Positions 6,522-64,000 of a DNA stretch of 64,000 nt are shown here, in pieces. The notes beneath the pieces were generated by a model, which worked only from the letters and a program-made list of their open reading frames with translations, ran no database searches and was not told the DNA's origin. The translations under genes and the position numbers were made by a program. Source of the stretch: Eledone cirrhosa (Eukaryota); contig OZ024742.1 of the NCBI GenBank assembly GCA_964016885.1, positions 40,424,001-40,488,000 of the forward strand, given 5' to 3'. How positions within the stretch are numbered: position 1 is the first letter of the stretch; every line of letters begins with the position of its first letter.

Positions 6522-7288
6522 CTTAACCCTCTTGACACCAAACCACCTGTAACACTCTCTCATTCTATGATACAAAATAATTTGTTTCAAAATATTTCTA
6601 TTCATCTAAAAATTTTCATTCACAATTTTTATACAAGAACGTGTGTTAACCCATTAACATTTAAACCAGCCATATCCAGCCAGAATTCTCCCCCTCTTTC
6701 TATTCAAACCAGCTGTAACCAGCCACTCATACCAACATTAAGGTATTGTTTTCAAAATAAATAATATCAAAATCTCATAGATTCGATATTATGTGAGATA
6801 ATCATATTGAGGTAAAGCCTTTACTGCAAAAATACAATAGTATATATAGAGTAATGTAAATGTTATGTGAAGTAAAGCCTTTACCATGAAAATACAATAG
6901 TATATATAGAGTAATGTAAATGTTATGTGAGGTAAAGTCTTTACTGCAAAAATACAATAGTATATATAGAGTAATGTAAATGTTATGTGAGGTAAAGTCT
7001 TTACTGCAAAAATACAATAGTATATATAGAGTAATGTAAATGTTATGTGAGGTAAAGTCTTTACTGCAAAAATACAATAGTATATATAGAGTAATGTAAA
7101 TGTTATGTGAGGTAAAGTCTTTACTGCAAAAATACAATAGTATATATAGAGTAATGTAAATGCTAAAGAGTTAAGTTAGATTCTAAATACCAGCTTAATA
7201 ATGAGAAAGTTTGATATATTACTAAAATCTTTCCAAATTCTTTATTGTTTTCAAAATTACTTTAATAGAAATATCATAAAAGGGTTAA
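6522..7288. mobile_element. TTAA-flanked piggyBac-like MITE (family A) carrying a nested family B MITE
   Basis: Begins ttaaCCCTCTTGACACCAAACCACCTG and ends ATAAAAGGGttaa. Related decayed copies lie near 4190-4628, 25961-26193, 40440-40631 and 55145-55370. Confidence 0.55.
6646..7174 (-). mobile_element. TTAA-flanked piggyBac-like MITE (family B) with an internal 60-bp array (~5.5 units)
   Basis: ttaa-CCCATTAACATTTA ... TAAATGCTAAAGAG-ttaa termini. It is the reverse complement of the 17229-18762 element. Confidence 0.75.
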
Positions 7289-17228: not shown

Positions 17229-18762
17229 TTAACCGTTTAGCATTTACTTTACTCTATATATACTATTGTATTTTCATGGTAAAGGCTTTACTTCACATAA
17301 CATTTACATTACTCTATATATACTATTGTATTTTCATGGTAAAGGTTTTACTTCACATAACATTTACATTACTCTATATATACTATTGTATTTTCATGGT
17401 AAAGGCTTTACCTTACGTAACATTTACATTGCTCTATATATACTATTGTATTTTCATGGTAAAGGCTTTACCTTACGTAACATTTACATTACTCTATATA
17501 TACTATTGTATTTTCATGGTAAAGGCTTTACCTTACGTAACATTTACATTACTCTATATATACTATTGTATTTTCATGGTAAAGGCTTTACCTTACGTAA
17601 CATTTACATTACTCTATATATACTATTGTATTTTCATGGTAAAGGCTTTACCTTACGTAACATTTACATTACTCTATATATACTATTGTATTTTCATGGT
17701 AAAGGCTTTACCTTACGTAACATTTACATTACTCTATATATACTATTGTATTTTCATGGTAAAGGCTTTACCTTACGTAACATTTACATTACTCTATATA
17801 TACTATTGTATTTTCATGGTAAAGGCTTTACCTTACGTAACATTTACATTACTCTATATATACTATTGTATTTTCATGGTAAAGGCTTTACCTTACGTAA
17901 CATTTACATTACTCTATATATACTATTGTATTTTCATGGTAAAGGCTTTACCTTACATAACATTTACATTACTCTATATATATACTATTGTATTTTCATG
18001 GTAAAGGCTTTACTTCACATAACATTTACATTACTCTATATATACTATTGTATTTTCATGGTAAAGGCTTTACTTCACATAACATTTACATTACTCTATA
18101 TATACTATTGTATTTTCATGGTAAAGGCTTTACTTCACATAACATTTACATTACTCTATATATACTATTGTATTTTCATGGTAAAGGCTTTACTTCACAT
18201 AACATTTACATTACTCTATATATACTATTGTATTTTCATGGTAAAGGCTTTACCTTACATAACATTTACATTACTCTATATATACTATTGTATTTTCATG
18301 GTAAAGGCTTTACTTCACATAACATTTACATTACTCTATATATACTATTGTATTTTCATGGTAAAGGCTTTACTTCACATAACATTTACATTACTCTATA
18401 TATACTATTGTATTTTCATGGTAAAGGCTTTACTTCACATAACATTTACATTACTCTATATATACTATTGTATTTTCATGGTACAGGCTTTACTTCACAT
18501 AACATTTACATTACTCTATATATACTATTGTATTTTCATGGTAAAGGCTTTACTTCACATAACATTTACATTACTCTATATATACTATTGTATTTTCATG
18601 GTAAAGGCTTTACTTCACATAATAGTGAATCTATGAGATTTTGAATCTATTTTGAAAACAACATCTTAACATTAGTATGAGTGTCTGGTTACAGCCAGTT
18701 TGAACAGAAAGAGGTGAGAGAATTCTGGCCAGATACAGCTGGTTTAAATGCCGAAGGGTTAA
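17229..18762 (+). mobile_element. piggyBac-like MITE family B with an expanded 60-bp minisatellite (~23 units, 17240-18620)
   Basis: ttaa-CCGTTTAGCATTTA ... TAAATGCCGAAGGG-ttaa termini. Unit catttacattactctatatatactattgtattttcatggtaaaggctttacttcacataa. Confidence 0.85.
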
Positions 18763-21726: not shown

Positions 21727-23515
21727 ATTGATTTGAGAGGGGGATGTGGGAGAAGGGGAGTGATTTGAGAGGGGGATGTGGGAGAAGGGGAGTGATTTGA
21801 GAGGGGGATGTGGGAGAAGGGGAGTGATTTGAGAGGGGGATGTGGGAGAAGGGGAGTGATTTGAGAGGAGGATGTGGGAGAAGGGGAGTGATTTGAGAGG
21901 GGGACGTGGGAGAAGGGGAGTGATTTGAGAGGGGGATGTGGGAGAAGGGGAGTGATTTGAGAGGGGGATGTGGGAGAAGGGGAGTGATTTGAGAGGGGGA
22001 TGTGGGAGAAGGGGAGTGATTTGAGAGGAGGATGTGGGAGAAGGGGAGTGATTTGAGAGGGGGACGTGGGAGAAGGGGAGTGATTTGAGAGGGGGACGTG
22101 GGAGAAGGGGAGTGATTTGAGAGGGGGACGTGGGAGAAGGGGAGCGTATGAGCGGGGGATGTGGGAGAAGGGGAGCGTATGAGCGGGGGATGTGGGAGAA
22201 GGGGAGCGATTTGAGAGGGGGATGTGGGAGAAGGGGAGTGATTTGAGAGGGGGATGTGGGAGAAGGGGAGCGATTTGAGAGGGGGATGTGGGAGAAGGGG
22301 AGCGATTTGAGAGGGGGATGTGGGAGAAGGGGAGCGATTTGAGAGGGGGATGTGGGAGAAGGGGAGCGATTTGAGAGGGGGATGTGGGAGAAGGGGAGTG
22401 ATTTGAGAGAGGGGTGTGGGAGAAGGGGAGTGATTTGAGAGGGGGACGTGGGAGAAGGGGAGTGATTTGAGAGGGGGACGTGGGAGAAGGGGAGTGATTT
22501 GAGAGGGGGATGTGGGAGAAGGGGAGTGATTTGAGAGGGGGACGTGGGAGAAGGGGAGTGATTTGAGAGGGGGACGTGGGAGAAGGGGAGTGATTTGAGA
22601 GGGGGATGTGGGAGAAGGGGAGTGATTTGAGAGGGGGACATGGGAGAAGGGGAGTGATTTGAGAGGGGGACGTGGGAGAAGGGGAGCGTATGAGCGGGGG
22701 ATGTGGGAGAAGGGGAGCGTATGAGCGGGGGATGTGGGAGAAGGGGAGCGTATGAGCGGGGGATGTGGGAGAAGGGGAGCGTATGAGCGGGGGATGCGGG
22801 AGAAGGGGAGCGATTTGAGAGGGGGATGTGGGAGAAGGGGAGTGATTTGAGAGGGGGATGTGGGAGAAGGGGAATGTATGAGAGGGGGACGTGGGAGAAG
22901 GGGAGTGATTTGAGAGGGGTATGTGGGAGAAGGGGAGTGATTTGAGAGGGGGATGTGGGAGAAGGGGAGCGTATGAGCGGGGACGTGGGAGAAAAGGAGT
23001 GATTTGAGAGGGGGGGGGGGAGAAGGGGAGTGATTTGAGAGGGGGATGTGGGAGAAGGGGAGTGATTTGAGAGAGGGACGTGGGAGAAGGGGAGTGATTT
23101 GAGAGGGGGATGTGGGAGAAGGGGAGTGATTTGAGAGGAGGATGTGGGAGAAGGGGAGTGTATGAGAGGGTTATGTGGGAGAAGGGGAGTGATTTGAGAG
23201 GGGAATGTGGGAGAAGGGGAGTGATTTGAGAGGGGGTGTATGGGAGAAGGGCTGTAAAGAAGGGGCGGGGATGTGGGAGAAGGGCTGTGAAGTGGGGAGA
23301 GGGTGTTGGAGAAGGGGAGTGAAGAGGAGGCAGGGATGTGGGAGAAGTGGAGTGAAGAGGAGAGTGGGATGTGGGAGAAGGGGAGTGAATAAGGGAGGGG
23401 AATGTTGGAAAAGGGGAGTGAAGAGGGGATGGGGATGTGGGAGAAGGGCTGAGAGAAGGGCTGTGAAGAGGAGAGGGGCGAGTAGGAGAAGAGCTGTGAA
23501 GGGGGACGGGGAGAG
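21727..23515 (+). repeat. 32-bp purine-rich minisatellite (tgatttgagagggggatgtgggagaaggggag), ~55 units, degenerate at the 3' end
   Basis: Period of 32 read directly. Confidence 0.95.
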
Positions 23516-31575: not shown

Positions 31576-32019
31576 CATCATCATCATCATCACCGTTTTA
31601 CGTCCGTTCTTCCATGCTAGTATGGGTTAGATTGGGTTGTCCTGTTGTGGGCAGTGTCCGGTCGGCTTACCTTGTCTTGCTCATATGGGAACTGATTCTG
31701 GTTTGATTTCTACAGCTGGATGCCCTTCCTAACACCAACCTCATTTACAGTGAGTGCTGGGTGCTTTTTTCCGTGGCGCCTACACGTCCACTTTGCAGTG
31801 TGGGCTGGGTGCTTTTTTGCCGTGGCACCTCCACGACCACTTTGCAGTGGAATGATAGGGACCCCAGTCCTATCATCTCATTTCTACAGCTGAGTAAACT
31901 GGAGCAATGTGAAATAAAGTGTCTTGCTCAAGGAAACAACACATCACCCAGTCTGAGAATTGAACTCACAACCTTTCGATTGCAAGCCCAATGCTCTAAC
32001 CACTAAGCCACGCACCTTC
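31576..32019 (-). mobile_element. Full-length tRNA-derived SINE (family 2) with RTE-LINE-derived 3' tail
   Basis: tRNA-like head with A/B boxes at 32019-31950. Its 3' ~270 bp are nearly identical to the LINE 3' UTR at 36-305. Confidence 0.9.
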
Positions 32020-42779: not shown

Positions 42780-45700
42780 CAAAACACAAAACACACACAG
42801 CACCCATAACACACACAGCACCCACAACACACACAGCACCCACAACACACACAGCACCCATAACACACACAGCACCCACAACACACACAGTAACCATAAC
42901 ACACACAGCACCCACAGCACACACAGTACCCATAACACACACAGCACCCACAACACACACAGTACCCACAACACACACAGTACCCATAACACACACAGCA
43001 CCCACAACACACACAGTACCCACAACACACACAGTACCCATAACACACACAGTACCCACAACACACACAGTACCCACAACACACACAGTACCCATAACAC
43101 ACACAGCACCCACAACACACACAGCACCCACAACACACACAGTACCCATAACACACACAGTACCCACAACACACACAGTACCCACAACACACACAGTACC
43201 CATAACACACACAGCACCCACAACACACACATCACCCACAACACACACAGCACCCATAACACACATAGCACCCATAACACACACAGCACCCAGAACACAC
43301 ACAGCACCCACAACACACACAGCACCCACAACACACACAGCACCCACAACACACACAGCACCCACAACACACAGACAGCACACACAACACACATAGCACC
43401 CACAACACACACAGCACCCACAACACACACAGCACCCACAACACACACAGCACCCACAACACACAGACAGCACACACAACACACATAGCACCCACAACAC
43501 ACACAGCACCCATAACACACACAGCACCCACAACACACACAGCACCCACAACACACACAGCACCCACAACACACACAGCACCCACAACACACACAGCACC
43601 CACAACACACACAGCACCCACAACACACAGACAGCACACACAACACACATAGCACCCACAACACACACAGCACCCATAACACACACAGCACCCACAACAC
43701 ACACAGCACCCACAACACACACACAGCACCCACAACACACACAGCACCCACAACACACACATCACCCATAACACACACAGCACCCACAACACACACAGCA
43801 CCCACAACACACACAGCACCCATAACACACACAGCACCCACAACACACACAGCACCCACAACACACACAGCACCCATAACACACACAGCACCCACAACAC
43901 ACACAGCACCCACAACACACACAGCACCCACAACACACACATCACCCATAACACACACAGCACCCACAACACACACAGCACCCACAACACACACAGCACC
44001 CACAACACACACAGCACCCACAACACACATAGCATCCACAACACACACAGCACCCACAACACACACATCACCCATAACACACACAGCACCCACAACACAC
44101 ACAGCACCCATAACACACACAGCACCCACAACACACACAGCACCCACAACACACATAGCATCCACAACACACACAGCACCCACAACACACACATCACCCA
44201 TAACACACACAGCACCCACAACACACACAGCACCCACAACACACACAGCACCCACAACACACACAGCACCCACAACACACATAGCATCCACAACACACAT
44301 AGCATCCACAACACACATAGCACCCATAACACACAAAGCACCCATAATACACATATCACCCATAACACACATAGCACCCACAACACACACAGCACCCTTA
44401 ACACACATAGCACCCACAACACACACATCAACCACAACACACACAGCACCCACAACACACACAGCACCCATAACACACACAGCACCCACAACACACACAG
44501 CACCCACAACACACATAGCATCCACAACACACATAGTATCCACAACACACATAGCACCCATAACACACAAAGCACCCATAATACACATATCACCCATAAC
44601 ACACATAGCACCCACAACACACACAGCACCCACAACACACACAGCACCCACAACACACACAGCACCCATAACACACACAGCACCCACAACACACACAGCA
44701 CCCACAACACACATAGCATCCACAACACACACAGCACCCATAACACACACAGCACCCACAACACACATAGCATCCACAACACACACAGCACCCACAACAC
44801 ACACAGCACCCATAACACACACAGCACCCACAACACACACAGCACCCACAACACACATAGCATCCACAACACACATAGCATCCACAACACACATAGCACC
44901 CATAACACACAAAGCACCCATAACACACATATCACCCATAACACACATAGCACCCACAACACACACAGCACCCTTAACACACATAGCACCCACAACACAC
45001 ACAGCACCCACAACACACACAGCACCCATAACACACACAGCACCCACAACACACACAGCACCCACAACACACATAGCATCCACAACACACACAGCACCCA
45101 CAACACACACATCACCCATAACACACACAGCACCCACAACACACACAGCACCCACAACACACACAACACCCACAACACACACAGCACCCATAACACACAC
45201 AGCACCCACAACACACATAGCACCCACAACACACATAGCACCCATAACACACAAAGCACCCATAACACACATATCACCCATAACACACATAGCACCCATA
45301 ACACACAAAGCACCCTTAACACACATAGCACCCACAACACACACAGCACCCACAACACACACAGCACCCATAACACACACAGTACCGACAACACACACAG
45401 CACCCACAACACACACAGCACCCATAACACACACAGCACCCATAACACACACAGTACCGACAACACACATAGCACCCACAACACACACAGCACCCACAAC
45501 ACACACAGCACCCATAACACACATAGCACCCATAACACACACAGTACCGACAACACACACAGCACCCACAACACACACAGCACCCATAACACACACAGCA
45601 CCCATAACACACATAGCACCCACAACACACACAGCACCCACAACACACACAGCACCCATAACACACACAGCACCCATAACACACATAGCACCCACAACAC

Positions 45701-48700
45701 ACACAGCACCCACAACACACACAGTACCCATAACACACACAGCACCCACAACACACACAGCACCCATAACACACACAGCACCCATAACACACATAGCACC
45801 CACAACACACACAGCACCCACAACACACACAGCACCCATAACACACACAGCACCCATAACACACACAGCACCCATAACACACACAGCACCCACAACACAC
45901 ACAGCACCCACAACACACACAGCACCCACAACACATACATCACCCACAACACACATAGCATCCACAACACACACAGCACCCACAACACACACAGCACCCA
46001 TAACACACACAGCACCCACAACACACACAGCACCCACAAAACACACAGCACCCATAACACACACAGCACCCACAACACACACAGCACCCACAACACACAC
46101 ACAGCACCCACAACACACACATCACCCACAACACACACAGCACCCATAACACACATAGCACCCACAACACACACAGCACCCATAACACACACAGCACCCA
46201 CAACACACACAGCACCCATAACACACACAGCACCCACAACACACACAGCACCCACAACACACACAGCACCCATAACACACACAGCACCCACAACACACAC
46301 AGCACCCATAACACACACAGCACCCATAACACACACAGCACCCACAACACACACAGCACCCACAACACACACAGCACCCATAACACACAGACAGCACACA
46401 CAACACACACAGCACCCACAACACACACAGCACCCACAACACACAGAGCACCCATAACACACATAGCACCTATAACACACACAGCACCCACAACACACAC
46501 AGCACCCACAACACACACAGCACCGATAACACACACAGCACCCACAACACACACAGCACCTATAACACACACAGGACCCACAACACACACAGCACCCACA
46601 ACACACACAGCACCCACAACACACACAGCACCCACAACACACACAGCACCTATAACACACACAGCACCCACAACACACACAGCACCTATAACACACACAG
46701 CAACCATAACACACACAGCACCCACAACACACACAGCACCCACAACACACAGAGCACCCATAACACACACAGCAGCCACAACACACACAGCACCCTTAAT
46801 ACACACAGCACCCACAACACACACAGCACCCATAACACACACAGCAGCCACAACACACACAGCACCTATAACACACACAGCAGCCACAACACACACAGCA
46901 CCCATAACACACACAGCAGCCACAACACACACAGCACCCATAACACACACAGCACCCACAACACACACAGCACCCACAACACACAGAGCACCCATAACAC
47001 ACACAGCAGCCACAACACACACAGCACCCTTAATACACACAGCACCCACAACACACACAGCACCCATAACACACACAGCAGCCACAACACACACAGCAGC
47101 CACAACACACACAGCACCCATAACACACACAGCAGCCACAACACACACAGCACCCTTAATACACACAGCACCCACAACACACACAGCACCCATAACACAC
47201 ACAGCAGCCACAACACACACAGCACCTATAACACACACAGCAGCCACAACACACACAGCACCCACAACACACACAGCACCCACAACACATACAGCACCCA
47301 CAACACACACAGCACCTATAACACACACAGCACCCACAACACACACAGCACCCACAACACACACAGCACCCACAACACACACAGCACCCACAACACACAC
47401 AGCACCCATAACACACACAGCACCCACAACACACTGAGCACCCATAACACACATAGCACCTATAACACACACAGCACCCACAACACACACAGCACCTATA
47501 ACACACACAGCACCCACAACACACACAGCACCTATAACACACACAGCACCCACAACACACACAGCACCCACAACACACACAGCACCCACAACACACACAG
47601 CACCCACAACACACACAGCACCTATAACACACACAGCACCCACAACACACACAGCACCTATAACACACACAGCACCCATAACACACACAGCACCCACAAC
47701 ACACACAGCACCCACAACACACAGAGCACCCATAACACACACAGCAGCCACAACACACACAGCACCCACAACGCACAGAGCACCCATAACACACACAGCA
47801 CCCACAACACACACAGCACCCACAACACACACAGCACCTATAACACACACAGCACCCACAACACACACAGCACCCATAACACACACAGCAGCCACAACAC
47901 ACACAGCACCTATAACACACACAGCACCCACAACACACACAGCACCCACAACACACACAGCACCCACAACACACACAGCACCTATAACACACACAGCACC
48001 CACAACACACACAGCACCTATAACACACACAGCACCTACAACACACACAGCACCCACAACACACACAGCACCTATAACACACACAACACCCATAACACAC
48101 ACAGCAGCCACAACACACACAGCACCCTTAATACACACAGCACCCACAACACACACAGCACCCATAACACACACAGCACCCACAACACACACAGCACCCA
48201 TAACACACACAGCACCCATAACACACACAGCACCCACAACACACACAGCACCCACAACACACACAGCACCCATAACACACAGACAGCACACACAACACAC
48301 ACAGCACCCACAACACACACAGCACCCACAACACACAGAGCACCCATAACACACATAGCACCTATAACACACACAGCACCCACAACACACACAGCACCCA
48401 CAACACACACAGCACCGATAACACACACAGCACCCACAACACACACAGCACCTATAACACACACAGGACCCACAACACACACAGCACCCACAACACACAC
48501 AGCACCCACAACACACACAGCACCCACAACACACACAGCACCTATAACACACACAGCACCCACAACACACACAGCACCTATAACACACACAGCAACCATA
48601 ACACACACAGCACCCACAACACACACAGCACCCACAACACACAGAGCACCCATAACAAACACAGCAGCCACAACACACACAGCACCCTTAATACACACAG

Positions 48701-51700
48701 CACCCACAACACACACAGCACCCATAACACACACAGCAGCCACAACACACACAGCACCTATAACACACACAGCAGCCACAACACACACAGCACCCATAAC
48801 ACACACAGCAGCCACAACACACACAGCACCCATAACACACACAGCACCCACAACACACACAGCACCCACAACACACAGAGCACCCATAACACACACAGCA
48901 GCCACAACACACACAGCACCCTTAATACACACAGCACCCACAACACACACAGCACCCATAACCTCACACAGCAGCCACAACACACACAGCAGCCACAACA
49001 CACACAGCACCCATAAATCACACAGCAGCCACAACACACACAGCACCCTTAATACACACAGCACCCACAACACACAGAGCACCCATAACACACATAGCAC
49101 CTATAACACACACAGCACCCACAACACACACAGCACCCACAACACACACAGCACCGATAACACACACAGCACCCACAACACACACAGCACCTATAACACA
49201 CACAGGACCCACAACACACACAGCACCCACAACACACACAGCACCCACAACACACACAGCACCCACAACACACACAGCACCTATAACACACACAGCACCC
49301 ACAACACACACAGCACCTATAACACACACAGCAACCATAACACACACAGCACCCACAACACACACAGCACCCACAACACACAGAGCACCCATAACACACA
49401 CAGCAGCCACAACACACACAGCACCCTTAATACACACAGCACCCACAACACACACAGCACCCATAACACACACAGCAGCCACAACACACACAGCACCTAT
49501 AACACACACAGCAGCCACAACACACACAGCACCCATAACACACACAGCAGCCACAACACACACAGCACCCATAACACACACAGCACCCACAACACACACA
49601 GCACCCACAACACACAGAGCACCCATAACACACACAGCAGCCACAACACACACAGCACCCTTAATACACACAGCACCCACAACACACACAGCACCCATAA
49701 CCTCACACAGCAGCCACAACACACACAGCAGCCACAACACACACAGCACCCATAACACACACAGCAGCCACAACACACACAGCACCCTTAATACACACAG
49801 CACCCACAACACACACAGCACCCATAACACACACAGCAGCCACAACACACACAGCACCTATAACACACACAGCAGCCACAACACACACAGCACCCACAAC
49901 ACACACAGCACCCACAACACATACAGCACCCACAACACACACAGCACCTATAACACACACAGCACCCACAACACACACAGCACCCACAACACACACAGCA
50001 CCCACAACACACACAGCACCCACAACACACACAGCACCCACAACACACACAGCACCCACAACACACTGAGCACCCATAACACACATAGCACCTATAACAC
50101 ACACAGCACCCACAACACACACAGCACCTATAACACACACAGCACCCACAACACACACAGCACCTATAACACACACAGCACCCACAACACACACAGCACC
50201 CACAACACACACAGCACCCACAACACACACAGCACCCACAACACACACAGCACCTATAACACACACAGCACCCACAACACACACAGCACCTATAACACAC
50301 ACAGCACCCATAACACACACAGTACCCACAACACACACAGCACCCACAACACACAGAGCACCCATAACACACACAGCAGCCACAACACACACAGCACCCA
50401 CAACGCACAGAGCACCCATAACACACACAGCACCCACAACACACACAGCACCCACAACACACACAGCACCTATAACACACACAGCACCCACAACACACAC
50501 AGCACCCATAACACACACAGCAGCCACAACACACACAGCACCTATAACACACACAGCACCCACAACACACACAGCACCCACAACACACACAGCACCCACA
50601 ACACACACAGCACCTATAACACACACAGCACCCACAACACACACAGCACCTATAACACACACAGCACCCACAACACACACAGCACCCACAACACACACAG
50701 CACCCACAACACACACAGCACCCACAACACACACAGCACCTATAACACACACAGCACCCACAACACACACAGCACCTATAACACACACAGCACCCATAAC
50801 ACACACAGCACCCACAACAGACACAGCACCCACAACACACAGAGCACCCATAACACACACAGCAGCCACAACACACACAGCACCCTTAATACACACAGCA
50901 CCCACAACACACATAGCACCCACAACACACAAAGCACCTATAACACACACAGCACCCACAACACACACAGCACCTATAACACACACAGCACCCACAACAC
51001 ACAGAGCACCCATAACACACACAGCACCCACAACACACACAGCACCCACAACACACACAGCACCCACAACACACACAGCACCTATAACACACACAGCACC
51101 CACAACACACACAGCACCTATAACACACACAGCACCCACAACACACACAGCACCTATAACACACACAGCACCCACAACACACACAGCACCCACAACACAC
51201 ACAGCACCCACAACACACACAGCACCCACAACACACACAGCACCTATAACACACACAGCACCCACAACACACACAGCACCTATAACACACACAGCACCCA
51301 TAACACACACAGCACCCACAACACACACAGCACCCACAACACACAGAGCACCCATAACACACACAGCAGCCACAACACACACAGCACCCTTAATACACAC
51401 AGCACCCACAACACACATAGCACCCACAACAAACACAGCACCCACAACACACAGAGCACCCATAACACACACAGCAGCCACAACACACACAGCACCCTTA
51501 ATACACACAGCACCCACAACACACAGAGCACCCATAACACACACAGCAGCCACAACACACACAGCAGCCACAACACACACAGCAGCCACAACACACAGCA
51601 GCCACGACACACACAGCACCCACAACACACACAGCACCCACAACACGCACAAAACCCACAACACACACACCACCCACAACACACACAGCACCCACACACA

Positions 51701-52140
51701 GCACCTATAACACACACAGCACCTATAACACACACAGCAGCCCCAACACACAGCAGCCACGACACACACAGCAGCCACAACTCACAGCAGCCACAACACA
51801 CACATCAGCCACAACACACACATCACCCACAACACACACAGCACCCACAACACACACAAAACCCACAACACACACAGCACCCACAACACACACAGCACCC
51901 ACAACACACACAGCACCGACCACACACAGCAGCCACAACACACACAGCACCCACAACACACACAGCACCCACAACACACACAGCACTGACCACACACAGC
52001 AGCCACAACACACATAGCACCCACAACACACACAGCACCCACAACACACACAGCACCCACAACACACACAGCACTGACCACACACAGCAGCCACAACACA
52101 CACACCACCCACAACACACACAGCACCCACCACACACACA
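42780..52140 (+). repeat. 18-bp satellite (cacacacagcacccacaa and variants), ~9.4 kb, ~520 units
   Basis: Period of 18 read directly. It explains all the VCVVGA/CCGCCV/LWVLCV ORFs. Confidence 0.97.
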
Positions 52141-52694: not shown

Positions 52695-54541
52695 AGAGAT
52701 ACTGTACTGGAGAAGACTTGTCTAAACATGCAAGCTTAGAGATACTGTACTGGAGAAGATTTGTCTAAACCATGCGAGCTTAGAGATACTGTACTGGAGA
52801 AGACTTGTCTAAAACATGCAAGCTTAGAGATACTGTACTGGAGAAGACTTGTCTAAAACATGCAAGCTTAGAGATACTGTACTGGAGAAGACTTGTCTAA
52901 AACATGCAAGCTTAGAGATACTGTACTGGAGAAGACTTGTTTAAAACATGCAAGCTTAGAGATACTGTACTGGAGAAGACTTGTCTAAAACATGCAAGCT
53001 TAGAGATACTGTACTGGAGAAGACTTGTCTAAAACATGCAAGCTTAGAGATACTGTACTGGAGAAGACTTGTCTAAACATGCAAGCTTAGAGATACTGTA
53101 CTGGAGAAGACTGGTCTAAAACATGCAAGCTTAGAGATACTGTACTGGAGAAGACTGGTCTAAAACATGCAAGCTTAGAGATACTGTACTGGAGAAGACT
53201 GGTCTAAAACATGCAAGCTTAGAGATACTGTACCGGAGAAGACTTGTCTAAAACATGCAAGCTTAGAGATACTGTACTGGAGAAGACTTGTCTAAACATG
53301 CAAGCTTAGAGATACTGTACTGGAGAAGACTGGTCTAAAACATGCAAGCTTAGAGATACTGTACTGGAGAAGACTGGTCTAAAACATGCAAGCTTAGAGA
53401 TACTGTACTGGAGAAGACTGGTCTAAAACATGCAAGCTTAGAGATACTGTACTGGAGAAGACTTGTCTAAAACATGCGAGCTTAGAGATACTGTACTGGA
53501 GAAGATTTGTCTAAAACATGCAAGCTTAGAGATACTGTACTGGAGTAGACTTGTCTAAAACATGCAAGCTTAGAGATACTGTACTGGAGAAGACTTGTCT
53601 AAAACATGCAAGCTTAGAGATACTGTACTGGAGAAGACTGGTCTAAAACATGCAAGCTTAGAGATACTGTACTGGAGAAGATTTGTCTAAAACATGCAAG
53701 CTTAGAGATACTGTACTGGAGAAGACTTGTCTAAAACATGCAAGCTTAGAGATACTGTACTGGAGAAGACTTGTCTAAAACATGCAAGCTTAGAGATACT
53801 GTACTGGAGAAGACTGGTCTAAAACATGCAAGCTTAGAGATACTGTACTGGAGAAGATTTGTCTAAAACATGCAAGCTTAGAGATACTGTACTGGAGAAG
53901 ATTTGTCTAAAACATGCAAGCTTAGAGATACTGTACTGGAGAAGATTTGTCTAAAACATGAAAGCTTAGAGATACTGTACTGGAGAAGATTTATCTAAAA
54001 CATGCGAGCTTAGAGATACTGTACTGGAGAAGATTTGTCTAAAATATGCGAGCTTAGAGATACTGTACTGGAGAAGACTTGTCTAAAACATGCGAGCTTA
54101 GAGATACTGTACTGGAGAAGACTTGTCTAAAACATGCAAGCTTAGAGATACTGTACTGGAGAAGACTTGTCTAAAACATGCAAGCTTAGAGATACTGTAC
54201 TGGAGAAGACTGGTCTAAAACATGCAAGCTTAGAGATACTGTACTGGAGAAGATTTGTCTAAACATGCGAGCTTAGAGATACTGTACTGGAGAAGATTTG
54301 TCTAAAACATGCAAGCTTAGAGATACTGTACTGGGGAAGATTTGTCTAAACATGCAAGCTTAGAGATACTGTACTGGAGAAGACTGGTCTAAAACATGCA
54401 AGCTTAGAGATACTGTACTGGAGAAGATTTGTCTAAAACATGCAAGCTTAGAGATACTGTACTGGAGAAGACTTGTCTAAAACATGCAAGCTTAGAGATA
54501 CTGTACTGGAGAAGACTGGTCTAAAATATGCAAGCTTAGAG
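52695..54541 (+). repeat. 44-bp minisatellite (gagatactgtactggagaagacttgtctaaaacatgcaagctta), ~42 units, derived from an RTE LINE 3' end
   Basis: The unit resembles 1741-1786 (gagacactgtgctgaaaaagacctgtccaacccatacaagcatg), and the array is followed by a LINE-like (GAT)n tail. Confidence 0.9.
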
Positions 54542-55819
54542 AAACGAGTTTTAAAATGGCAGTGGTGATGATGATGAAACAGGCATAGAAAATTACCATA
54601 CTTCATTTATTTTGTGATCCACTCTGACTTGGTGTGTTCGGAGGTTTTAGTGGAGAATGACAGTAGTGACAGAGATAAGCCAGATCCATGCAGTTTTAAT
54701 TTTCACAGAGAAATAAATCGATTCTGTGATTATTTTGATGTATATAATATACATGTATATGTGTGTGTGGTTTTGCGTTTATCGTATTTAGATAAAAGCC
54801 ATAATATAGCTGTGAATACAATACCGAGAAAGAACCTTTGAGAGCAAGCTTTTAGCTCAAATTTCCCTGCAAGGCACAAAACATATGAGAAATAAATTTC
54901 CCTTGGGAAACGTTTCCAGATAATCTTGTATCTATTCTATATAGCTAGGTGATCTGAGGCATGTAGAATAAAGTATTCTGTTGAGAAATATAACAAAATT
55001 AGCTGATAGCCCGACACCTAATTCACTTAAACATTTTATTTCTATTCTGAGGATGATGCTATAAAATATATTCTGGTATATTGTTAAAACATCTGAGGGT
55101 TTGAAAATCGTTGGATACCACATAGTAGCATGGTTTGAGGCTGAATTAACCCTTTTTATACCAACCTGGTCAAAACTAGCTCTGGTTCTATGAAACAAAA
55201 CCACCCATTTTAATAGGGTCCTATTTAAATAAAAATTTTCCAACATAATTTTGTATAAGAACCACATGTTAAGTTACAATCTTAGTAATGAAGTAATTTT
55301 ATTTAATCCCACAAAATTCTTCATAACTTAATTGTAATTGAGTGTATTTCATAGGAAATACACTAAAGCAGATTTGAGCCACAAATGATACCTTTGGAAT
55401 ATCAAGGCTATGATTTAGTATACTTTGGTTTTGAGTCTCAGATGGTTGAATAAACACAATGTGAGACTGTCAGTTGAAGTGTTGACAAAATATTATATTG
55501 ACCAAAAGCAGTTAACTTTAAAAAGTTGAGTTCAGAAGCTGTATGTATCATGTGTTGGTATAGTATGTATGTCCCAATTGTAATGTTGTGAAAACATAAT
55601 ATAGTTAATTTCTTTGGACTAAGTAGAAAGATATATTTTCACAGAATGAGAATGGAATGAGATATGAAAAATTGTTCCAAGTGAATTGTAGAGCGTAAAA
55701 AAATAAATTACATAGTGATATTATGTTCAAATCTTGCCATGTAGCATGAATAGAAAAGAGATGAGTTTCACATGGTTGACTGTGACTTAACTTTTCATAT
55801 CTAAATCAAAAGTCTATCT

Positions 55820-57589: not shown

Positions 57590-58830
57590 AAAGCAACAAC
57601 AACAACAACCAGAATACTGACAACAACAATATGAACAATAAATATCAACAACAACAATAACAATGACAATATTGACTACACCAAGTACAACAACAACAAC
57701 TACTACTACTACTACTACTACTACTACTGCAGCAATATCAGCAACTATAACTACAACAACATTGACAACCAGTTCAACAATATCGACAACAACAATAACT
57801 AGAACAACATTGATAACCAGTTCAATACCAACAACAACAACTACAACAATAGCACCAACAACAACAACAACTACAACAATAGCACCAACAACAACAACTA
57901 AAACAATAGCACCAACAATTATTACAACATTGACAACAAGTAGAAGAATATCGACATCAAGTATGTCAACAACAATAATCTCAACAGAGTCAACAATGTC
58001 AACAATATTGACAAGAATATCAACAAACATTAAATCAATGTCAACAACAATATTGACAACAATATCAACACCAAGTACACCACCACCAACAACAACAACT
58101 CCAAGTGCACCACCACCAACAACAACAACTCCAAGTGCACCACCACCAACAACAACAACTCCAAGTGCACCACCACCACCAACAACATCAACTCCAAGTG
58201 CACCACCACCACCAGCAACAACTCCAAGTGCACCACCACCAACAACAACAACTCCAAGTGCACCACCACCACCAACAACATGAACACCAAGTGCACCACC
58301 ACCACCAACAACATCAACTCCAAGTGCACCACCACCAGCAACAACTCCAAGTGCACCACCACCACCAACAACATCAACTCCAAGTGCACCACCACCACCA
58401 ACAACATCAACTCCAAGTGCACCACCACCACCAGCAACAACTCCAAGTGCACCACCACCAACAACAACAACTCCAAGTGCACCACCACCACCAACAACAT
58501 GAACACCAAGTGCACCACCACCACCAACAACATCAACACCAAGTGCACCACCACCACCAACAACAACTCCAAGTGCACCACCACCACCAGCAACAACAAC
58601 TACAATAATAGCATCTAATACAACAAGATCAACAACAACAACACCAAGCGTACCATCAACAACTCCAAATGCTCCACAAACAACATTAACTCCTAGTGCA
58701 CCAACAACAACTCCAAATGATGCTCCACCAACAACAACAACATCTCTAAGTGCACCAACAAGAACACCTACAGCAACCACAACAATATCAACAAGTACAA
58801 CAACAATAATAACAGCAATGATTATGACAA
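57590..58830 (+). repeat. (ACA/ACC)n low-complexity region with a 30/33-bp repeat (aacaactccaagtgcaccaccacc)
   Basis: Directly visible. Triplet periodicity keeps several frames open. Confidence 0.85.
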
Positions 58831-62139: not shown

Positions 62140-62361
62140 ATAATAATGATTTCTACTATAGGTAGAAGGACAGCAATTTGGGAGGAGGGGAAAGTCAATT
62201 AAATCGACCCCAGTGCATTACTGGTACTTTACTTTATCAACCTCGCAAGGATGAAAGGCAAAGCTAACCGCAGCAGGATTTGAACTCAGAATGTAAAGGG
62301 CCATAACTATGCTTCAAAGCATGGTGTCTGATGCTCTACCAATACTGCCAATCCACCACCC
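62140..62361 (-). mobile_element. tRNA-derived SINE (family 1)
   Basis: Reverse complement of the 33649 family. Confidence 0.8.
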
Positions 62362-62533
62362 TAACAACAATAATACTATTACTATCAAGTCCAACAACAA
62401 CCACCATCTCCACCAATAACTAAAACCTTCTTGTGACATGAGTTGTTTAACTCAAGTTCAGTTCCATTTGAGAGAACGTAAGATTAAAGGAAATCCAGTC
62501 ATAATTACCCCATCGCTTTTATATTTAGAGGTT

Positions 62534-63053
62534 CCTCTCATATATTCAATTGTATTACACGGCTTGGAAAGATTCCCTTCCTTGAGCTATTTAATTGTAA
62601 AAGACTATTTTGAGTTTCTAACTCAATCTATGATATTCTCGGCTCCATACGTAGAGCTAACTTTAGTCTCATAAAACCGGCTGCTACTTTTAGCGGCATG
62701 AGTATGAGACGCGCTAGGTGCTGTAACATGTGCTTTTATATCAATACATGGTTCAGTCTTCTTAGATCTTTTGAAGTGAAAGGTACGAATTTCCTGGATA
62801 CCCGCAGAAGAGCACAGGAATGGTGGCTTTCACTTAATAATCCTTGCGAAACAGATTTTAGATCTGTCCGGGTATCAAAGGCAGTTGCCCGATATAGGTT
62901 TGTTATTTTTATTGATTTATTACTTTAAATCGAGACAGGCAAACCATATAGTTTTCAATTAGTATTTTTTCAACCTAGCTAACTTGGTCATTTGCAATTC
63001 GAACACATGTATACTTGTATCGGTGTTCATCCCTCTCATATATTCAATTGTAT
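62534..63053 (+). mobile_element. ~500-bp HHR-containing unit with 22-bp terminal direct repeats (retrozyme-like)
   Basis: cctctcatatattcaattgtat at 62534 and 63032. Ends in (TA)n(GA)n. Confidence 0.6.
62797..62876 (+). ncRNA. Type I hammerhead ribozyme with full stems and one core substitution (U4A)
   Basis: gatacccg-CAGAAGA-gca.c.agga(loop)tcct.tgc-GAAA-cagatt(tta)gatct-GTC-cgggtatc. Perfect 8-bp stem I and 6-bp stem III. Confidence 0.75.
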
Positions 63054-64000
63054 ATATATATATATAGAGAGAGAGAGAGATGAAGACCAAGTCAGATTCA
63101 TATTATTTAGGAGTTTTGTGTGTCTATTCCCAGGGTCATCACAAGAGTACAAGGCAATTAATTTTACACTGTAATGAAGAAACAAGTTGAGAGATTGACA
63201 TTTCAGACAGGAATCCTTTGTCAAGTAAAAGCAGAAATTTTACTCTGTTTTTATTTTTCAGCAAATGATAACTGTCTGAAAGACTAAACTCTCCAGGGTT
63301 TCTTTCTTGTAGTATAAAATTAATTATTTCGATATAATCAACTTTTCCCATCTCCCAAATGAGAAAAGTAAAAAAATCAAATCAAATAAAACAATATTAT
63401 TGATAATAATATTACACATAGTAATGCAGAAGTTTATCCAACAGTAACACTTTTCACAAGTCAATGAGGGAGCCTTTACATAATAATTTCAGCTGCTAGA
63501 AATAGGAATGAAATCTCCCCCAAATCATACCATAGCATATATAAATCGAAGAAAGACACATTGGGTATGTACCTGACAAAGAAAAAAGAAAAAGAAAACA
63601 GAATGGTCAAGACTAGAACATCTTTGACCATAGCTCTGTTTGGTCAGAGCTAAACAACAATATAGCAGCAATTACTGACAGACAATAATCCTTTGACCAT
63701 TTTATGGCCATATTTTTCATAAAATATTCTGTATTTTAATTTATGGATAATTTAATGTGATTTACTAAAATTATCAATTATTTCATTAAGATGGTATTTA
63801 CAACATAATAAATGGTCCTTATATACAACTAGACCACCTGAGGTCACTTAAAAATATTTTTTTAAATAATTAAAATATACACAGACATATATATAATGTA
63901 AAATGAAATTGGAAGGCCCATATATATATATATATATGTGTGTGTGTTCGTGTGTGTGTGTATATGTGTGTGTGTATACATATTCTCTCTCTATGTCTCT

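Follow-up and report, generated by a model that had tools for sequence, protein, structure and literature searches.

A dispersed retrozyme-type family of Eledone cirrhosa with a Penelope-like insertion footprint and an altered hammerhead core

Background

The window analysed here, a stretch of 64,000 nucleotides of Eledone cirrhosa (contig OZ024742.1 of assembly GCA_964016885.1, positions 40,424,001 to 40,488,000), holds near its end a 498-nt unit with a three-stem hammerhead motif whose core carries A at position 4. U4 is part of the uridine turn of the hammerhead. The questions raised by this locus are whether the copy is a damaged relic of a family with a canonical core or a regular member of a family in which the altered core is the rule, whether such a core could still cut, and how a unit of this kind reaches its insertion site. 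Non-LTR retrozymes have been described to form circles, and Penelope-like elements have been proposed as their mobilisers (PMC7229834; bioRxiv 10.64898/2026.07.22.740005; PMC4209133; PMC7761336).

Results

Anatomy of the window copy

Unit positions are counted from u1 = 62534, and core positions follow the hammerhead numbering. The features, all on the plus strand, are as follows.

62534..63053, +: one-armed insertion made up of one whole 498-nt unit (u1-u498) followed by u1-u22, truncated 5' and ending 3' at the fixed u22 end
62534..62555, +: 22-mer, copy 1 (u1-u22); its last base is fixed end site 1
62556..62636, +: 81-nt "tail" (u23-u103), carried by two-armed insertions at one end only
62561..62589, +: hairpin 1, bulged, of the GGCUC...GAGC type, 5 nt past u22, with a C>T private to the window copy
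62636, +: fixed end site 2 (u103)
62641..62658, +: hairpin 2 (GGCUC...GAGC), 4 nt beyond fixed end site 2
62774..62782, +: AAGUGAAAG, with complementarity to loop II; a candidate strand of a pseudoknot, or else belonging to a rival hairpin that would be inhibitory
62797-62804, +: hammerhead stem I, 5' strand GATACCCG, 8 bp with CGGGTATC
62805..62811, +: core CAGAAGA (C3-A4-G5-A6-A7-G8-A9), with A4 at 62806
62812..62847, +: stem-loop II with a 3-bp base (GCA/UGC) and CUUUCACUU inside the loop at 62827-62835
62848..62868, +: G12-A13-A14 (GAA, 62848-62850), stem III (62851-62867) and C17
62869..62876, +: hammerhead stem I, 3' strand CGGGTATC
63032..63053, +: 22-mer, copy 2, the 3' end of the arm at u22
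63054..63080, +: host microsatellite into which the unit inserted, (TA)n first and then (GA)n

The earlier note on this DNA had correctly described the hammerhead, the 22-bp repeat, the (TA)n end and the lack of a credible ORF. The hammerhead with an 8-bp stem I and a 6-bp stem III (ACAGAT/ATCTGT, with a 5-nt loop) is read directly in the sequence, and its UC cleavage site places the predicted cut, by this anatomy, after 62868; the 22-bp direct repeat bounding the unit is perfect, its two copies being identical at a spacing of 498; (TA)n follows from 63054; and the unit has no credible ORF, its longest stop-to-stop frame being 104 aa. The length of the repeat is accidental: u22 is a fixed 3' end, and this copy was by chance truncated 5' at u1. 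Rfam gave no hammerhead match, either at the gathering score or at E<=10, and only chance miRNA matches over the TA/GA repeat, so that the hammerhead call rests on manual anatomy and on the covariation described below.

In three genomic-DNA-like runs, represented by contigs of one sample, no other letter was detected at 62806 at a 10% threshold, and no empty allele of the locus appeared among the joints listed. The 5' flank (62520-62533) resembles on the minus strand the u103 end region of older subfamilies, a likeness that is perhaps the trace of a tiny inverted arm, or chance.

Other repeats of the window include a very high-copy short repeat at 62150-62370 (summed depth of about 10^6, against 7-14 in the single-copy flank), probably a SINE, and a tRNA-like Rfam match at 31953-32010 that may be a SINE head. 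Minisatellites lie at 42790-52140, 52695-54542, 21729-23448, 17241-18622 and 6808-7162, and 58057-58607, with units of 18, 44, 32 and 60 bp plus one 30/33-bp CAA-rich array; the two 60-bp arrays have related-looking units in opposite orientation, and the CAA-rich one could encode a Thr/Pro-rich mucin-like repeat.

A dispersed family

The window copy is the only one within the 64 kb, and is one member of a dispersed non-coding family: the 3.0-Gb genome has 3170 candidate places, 40 of which were scored, a 17-mer from u443-459 has 1627 exact genome matches, and a 21-mer of sisters with a long stem III has 499. Units of about 475-560 nt join head to tail with no ORF between them, up to three in a row (locus L255), so that the multi-copy, retrozyme-like 498-nt unit with partial tandems anticipated in the earlier note was borne out by the genome copies and the arm map. 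Copies differ by 2-5% from the majority of their own group, which indicates that the family is not very young.

Two hundred hammerhead regions were sorted into 10 groups of at least 4 members (176 sequences, with 24 left ungrouped); these samples are biased toward long, core-containing copies. Stem III is long or branched through internal duplications in groups 27, 29, 30, 31 and 32 (e.g. L159, L146, L173), and is shortened stepwise in the A4 clade, the basal helix always being kept there and in the sister groups. A different repeat family, found near position 1500 of L062, L064, L065, L069, L071 and L077, combines a canonical CUGAUGA core with a stem II that is branched and unusually large, at about 75 nt.

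Insertion ends and target

After removal of 6 duplicate and 10 non-family loci, 222 arms could be mapped at 121 loci. Arms end within 3 nt of u22 in 77 cases, within 3 nt of u103 in 87 and elsewhere in 58, and TA-like sequence follows 140 of the 164 canonical ends; the 5' ends are scattered. Two arms are present at 80 of the 121 loci, and where both ends are canonical (52 two-armed loci) the combination is u22 with u103 in 50, u22 with u22 in 2 and u103 with u103 in none. Neither an LTR nor a target-site duplication of fixed short length was found, the ends being fixed element sites in (TA)n. The partial tandem, the inverted 5'-truncated arm and the one-sided tail together constitute a Penelope-like footprint, and a bias toward (TA)n targets is described for Neptune, Naiad and Hydra elements (PMC8557442).

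Other copies carry the 22-mer as element sequence, as the earlier note had proposed, and this rules it out as a target-site duplication. Each of the two end sites is followed, after 4-5 nt, by a GGCUC...GAGC hairpin, and hairpin 1 is likely a start signal for reverse transcription. An apparent class of arm ends at u324 was discarded, these being mostly alignment breaks at longer stem III variants.

Core position 4

The supposition that the window copy had lost U4 in an otherwise canonical family did not hold, A4 being the state of its subfamily. A4 was found in 321 genomic matches (16 in a reversed-pattern control), against 4 family copies with T4; these came from a search for non-A letters at position 4, whose 17 matches comprised 10 non-family sequences and 4 T, 2 C and 1 G of the family. 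Restored CTGAAGA copies, which the earlier note had suggested looking for, amounted to only 2 exact 16-mer matches. A hand count of the first 100 of 537 matches to a CCTG-stem pattern rendered 61 A4, 20 C4, 19 U3 and no canonical core. The window copy and its clade have A4 in place of the canonical CUGANGA core, which among the 10 groups is found only in group 32 (8/8); the others have U3-A8 (some with A9U), U3 or C4 accompanied by a 10.1 mismatch, C4 or A4, or A4. On a midpoint-rooted tree, built with no outgroup and with a support of 59 at its deepest split, U4 is ancestral and A4 derived, apparently through C4.

In nine A4 subfamilies up to 18% apart (145 of 163 loci), 128 of 498 columns vary, as opposed to none of the 14 core columns; the free position N7 varies. 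The rough probability of such invariance is 0.021 when 13 columns and the overall rate are taken, or 0.004 for the 9 unpaired core columns at the rate of unpaired columns. Across all groups, where 82 of 202 columns vary, G5, A6, A13, A14, 15.1/16.1 and C17 are the same in 10/10 group majorities and G12 in 9/10. Further changes do occur: G12A is the majority state of a 5-member A4 group, A6C is common to both passes of one locus (L178), and sister groups carry two stacked lesions (C4 or U3 plus the 10.1 mismatch; A9U). One U4 revertant (L066), with T in both arms, lies inside the A4 clade, and this U4 template did not spread.

Helices and folding

Stem I is Watson-Crick at 8/8 pairs in all 10 groups, and 4 of these pairs have changed on both sides. 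Pair 270/337 is C-G in 122, U-A in 37, U-G in 14 and C-A in 9 of 190 sequences, and pair 321/331 is G-C in 84, A-U in 72 and G-U in 13; on the midpoint-rooted tree, double changes have occurred inside the A4 clade at both (270/337, U-A to C-G; 321/331, A-U to G-C). CpG decay was rejected as the source of the 270/337 covariation, C-G being the derived state on that tree. In a hand-picked alignment of 27 rows 97.1% of the cells pair, against 14-42% in slid controls.

The stable monomer foreseen in the earlier note was recovered only for the excised motif of 96 nt, which folds as a hammerhead (z -2.1, with 3 of 200 shuffles as good). In the full window unit, a nested model prefers a rival hairpin to stem I, by 3.6 kcal/mol, leaving stem I a pair probability of 0.01; the same model prefers this hairpin in 4 of 9 subfamily majorities as well as in the window copy. 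The complementarity between the upstream strand and loop II is kept in all 10 groups, and can be either the pseudoknot common in hammerheads or part of the rival hairpin. The whole window unit is strongly structured (z -4.15, none of 100 shuffles as good), and across the subfamilies the unit is itself a selected fold, with 33 of 290 paired columns varying versus 95 of 208 unpaired ones.

Template for reverse transcription

The earlier note had taken the repeat to be what cDNA copied slightly more than once around a circular RNA, or a partial-tandem pLTR, would leave. Arms longer than one unit do exist (61 of 164 exceed 498 nt, and 1 of 164 exceeds two units). The predicted cut site is read through in 251 of the 256 arms that reach it; the 5/256 that stop there, in a sample biased toward core-containing copies, make no pile-up of 5' ends and are about what scattered truncation gives. 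In one locus with T4 (L037) the long arm does break off precisely there, but one such case could arise by chance. Non-majority alleles are 4-5 times more often common to duplicated stretches of the same insertion than to separate loci, and alleles seen in no other locus are shared between passes at 7 of 8037 sites in 29 within-locus pairs, versus 0.00003 per site between loci. Read-through, arms longer than one unit and shared private alleles indicate that cut linear monomers are not the usual template, which can be a circle or an uncut multimer; later local tandem duplication could also give shared private alleles.

No RNA-editing signature was detected family-wide (A>G 179 vs T>C 284, p 0.14). 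On the RNA-sense strand, non-CpG G>A changes (335/10840) exceed C>T changes (223/9774; p 0.0004) across the family.

Candidate partners

An ORF with reverse transcriptase and GIY-YIG domains is absent from the unit. Two Penelope-like families of the same genome do have coding capacity. A Neptune family (RVT_1 and GIY-YIG; L259-L307), with 1663 candidates and about 94% identity, has a long 3' UTR with no clear hammerhead and likewise ends in (TA)n at two fixed sites, some 40 nt from each other; it was rejected as a sequence partner, its 3' region having no homology to the unit. A Hydra-type family (L342-L366; G000:C1, C2), whose best 40 of 1717 candidates are essentially 100% identical, has DKT, RWK and CxCx5C motifs and two CUC...GAGC stems before its ORF, and in one copy (L365) an inverted arm ends just before the second stem. 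This family is very young and probably active now. Since similar hairpins stand before the Hydra-type ORF and Neptune lacks sequence homology, Hydra is the likelier enzyme clade, and by this analogy the units are likely mobilised by Hydra-clade enzymes, although no partner whose age matches that of the units came to light.

At about 84.727 Mb of G000:C1 (L166:381-1302, L222:516-1437), a Neptune reverse transcriptase fragment runs in sense into the 5' end of an arm with a long stem III, with 1 nt of microhomology at the junction and (TA)n on both outer sides, possibly through a template switch between two RNAs. Another Penelope-like family, longer than 1.5 kb and without an ORF (L258:430-835, L312-L341, L114:400-610), carries a canonical minimal hammerhead and shares the hairpin, as CGGCUC...GAGCUA, directly beyond its inner end. 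It was discarded as a partner, no ORF being found in it; the Hydra-type ORF next to it in L330 lies beyond a (TA)n tract.

Discussion

The explanation that accounts best for these observations, with a probability of about 0.52, is that the window holds a 5'-truncated member of a non-LTR retrozyme family with a fixed U4A ribozyme, likely slowed but still cutting, whose circles of ~500 nt are copied into (TA)n by a Penelope-like enzyme, likely of the Hydra clade. The A4 hammerhead would cleave slowly, ligation of the cut transcript would give a circle of about 500 nt, and the enzyme, presumably of that clade, would copy the circle into (TA)n repeats; both strands of a TA break would serve for priming, immediately 5' of the two hairpins. 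Weak cores would probably be explained by the need of the reverse transcriptase to pass the cut site while copying, the circles that seldom reopen being those that would be inserted.

Whether the ribozyme works at all is where the evidence is most divided. It could be dead in the A4 clade and in most sister groups, its helices serving as a fold for the Penelope enzyme and the family spreading through uncut tandem transcripts and template jumping. We regard this as possible, at clearly less than even odds. Most groups carry different core lesions, some of them doubled; single mutants of the CUGA turn were all weakly active when a different hammerhead was put through deep mutational scanning (PMC9901934); the core is masked by the rival hairpin; 5' ends are not concentrated at the predicted cut, and arms are short, with the one case in 164 over two units; and Naiad elements are described as spreading without canonical hammerheads (PMC8557442). 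G12A in the small A4 group, A6C in L178 and the stacked lesions also count against a working ribozyme, and the lack of an A>G excess counts against the best explanation as a whole. Selection on the fold of the entire unit may by itself preserve the stems, and the invariance of the core is explicable without catalysis, since several of its bases pair in the rival hairpin. A dead ribozyme does not account so well for the core bases held in all or nearly all group majorities, for the lack of a second core change fixed across the nine larger A4 subfamilies, or for the restoration U3-A8, which points to selection on the catalytic pocket. The slowed ribozyme is supported by the lack of other core changes, by the compensating stem changes and by natural variation known at the same core positions: U4C occurs in a viroid that is infectious although the variant cleaves weakly in vitro, U3 and A8 covary in natural hammerheads, and tertiary contacts through a loop II pseudoknot are common (Perreault et al. 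2011, PMC3088659). A slowed but working ribozyme is favoured over a dead scaffold.

The remaining alternatives concern the source of the cut and of the unit. A4 RNAs might be cut in trans by rare canonical relatives (group 32 or U4 revertants): canonical copies with near-identical arms coexist, and double hammerheads are described to cleave in trans in the cricket pDo500 satellite (PMC2837043). We hold this quite improbable; cutting in trans would not hold the enzyme-strand bases of the A4 RNA itself invariant, and group 32 and the A4 groups do not have the same stem sequences. It is also unlikely that the units are truncated pseudo-LTRs of an autonomous Penelope element whose body escaped sampling: the insertion footprint is identical (PMC8557442) and one arm is joined in sense to a Neptune reverse transcriptase fragment, but units lie head to tail with no ORF between, that junction (L166/L222) is the only strong match to this Neptune reverse transcriptase among loci up to L257, and the 3' region of the Neptune family has no homology to the unit. 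That the window copy is just one decayed member of a family whose core is canonical would fit the ancestral U4 surviving in group 32, and is refuted by the census of 321 A4 matches against 4 family T4.

A slowed ribozyme may be part of a more general pattern. We put forward tentatively, and as something that may well prove wrong, that retrozymes are selected to turn their own ribozyme down: several independent attenuating changes (U4C and then U4A; C3U with the 10.1 mismatch; U3-A8) would have been fixed on a scaffold that was kept, since a full lap of reverse transcription would be survived only by circles that seldom reopen; U4A would be a working core, and the loop II pseudoknot would double as an off-switch. 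Re-cutting of animal circles must be blocked by a mechanism stated to be unknown (PMC7229834), and 8 of 9 frog dimers tested did not cleave (bioRxiv 10.64898/2026.07.22.740005).

Hammerhead searches demand CUGANGA and leave families of this kind invisible; Rfam missed the present one. If A4 does cleave, the consensus of the natural core widens and counts of animal retrozymes are too low; if it is dead, a retrozyme can keep spreading without catalysis. The family offers a natural allelic series on one scaffold (canonical, C4, A4, U3-A8, and U3 plus mismatch), which makes testable both the need for the ribozyme in retrozymes and Penelope elements and the way in which circles avoid re-cutting.

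A retrozyme-type family with a Penelope footprint is a kind of element already known in print. As in the metazoan non-LTR retrozymes described (PMC7229834; bioRxiv 10.64898/2026.07.22.740005), the units are non-coding, AT-rich and self-paired, have one type I hammerhead each, occur as dispersed monomers and short tandems, and have a stable helix III like that of the invertebrate ones. At about 475-560 nt they exceed the 170-400 nt RNAs of Cervera and de la Pena 2020 (PMC7229834) and fall within the 51-972 bp range of the preprint by Li, Clavereau and Pollet 2026 (bioRxiv 10.64898/2026.07.22.740005). They differ in the non-canonical core of most subfamilies, in a long loop II that can pair upstream and in two-armed insertions with two fixed ends; because it lacks the canonical core, the window family is filed as a variant and not as a standard metazoan non-LTR retrozyme.

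With the EN+ Penelope-like elements of the Hydra and Neptune clades (Craig et al. 2021, PMC8557442) the family shares partial tandems, an inverted 5'-truncated arm, a one-sided tail and (TA)n targeting, and its CUC...GAGC hairpins resemble those before the Hydra-type ORF of the same genome. Unlike the Penelope-like elements described there and those with pLTR hammerheads (PMC4209133), it has no ORF, a tail of 81 nt instead of 30-40, and a full three-stem hammerhead instead of a minimal one.

The Dolichopoda pDo500 satellite (PMC2837043) is likewise a repeat of about 500 bp with a conserved hammerhead and compensatory stem changes, but its core is nearly invariant and canonical and it is a satellite, whereas the copies found here are dispersed two-armed insertions. 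No report of a fixed natural U4A core was found in the literature searched, figures or supplements of which could contain one, and U4A is absent from the main text of Perreault et al. 2011 (PMC3088659), Figure 5 excepted. Natural core variants are rare in that source, two of which, U4C and U3-A8, are both present in sister groups here. What distinguishes the present family is a series of different fixed weakenings of the core on a conserved scaffold, one of them, A4, being fixed in the majority lineage.
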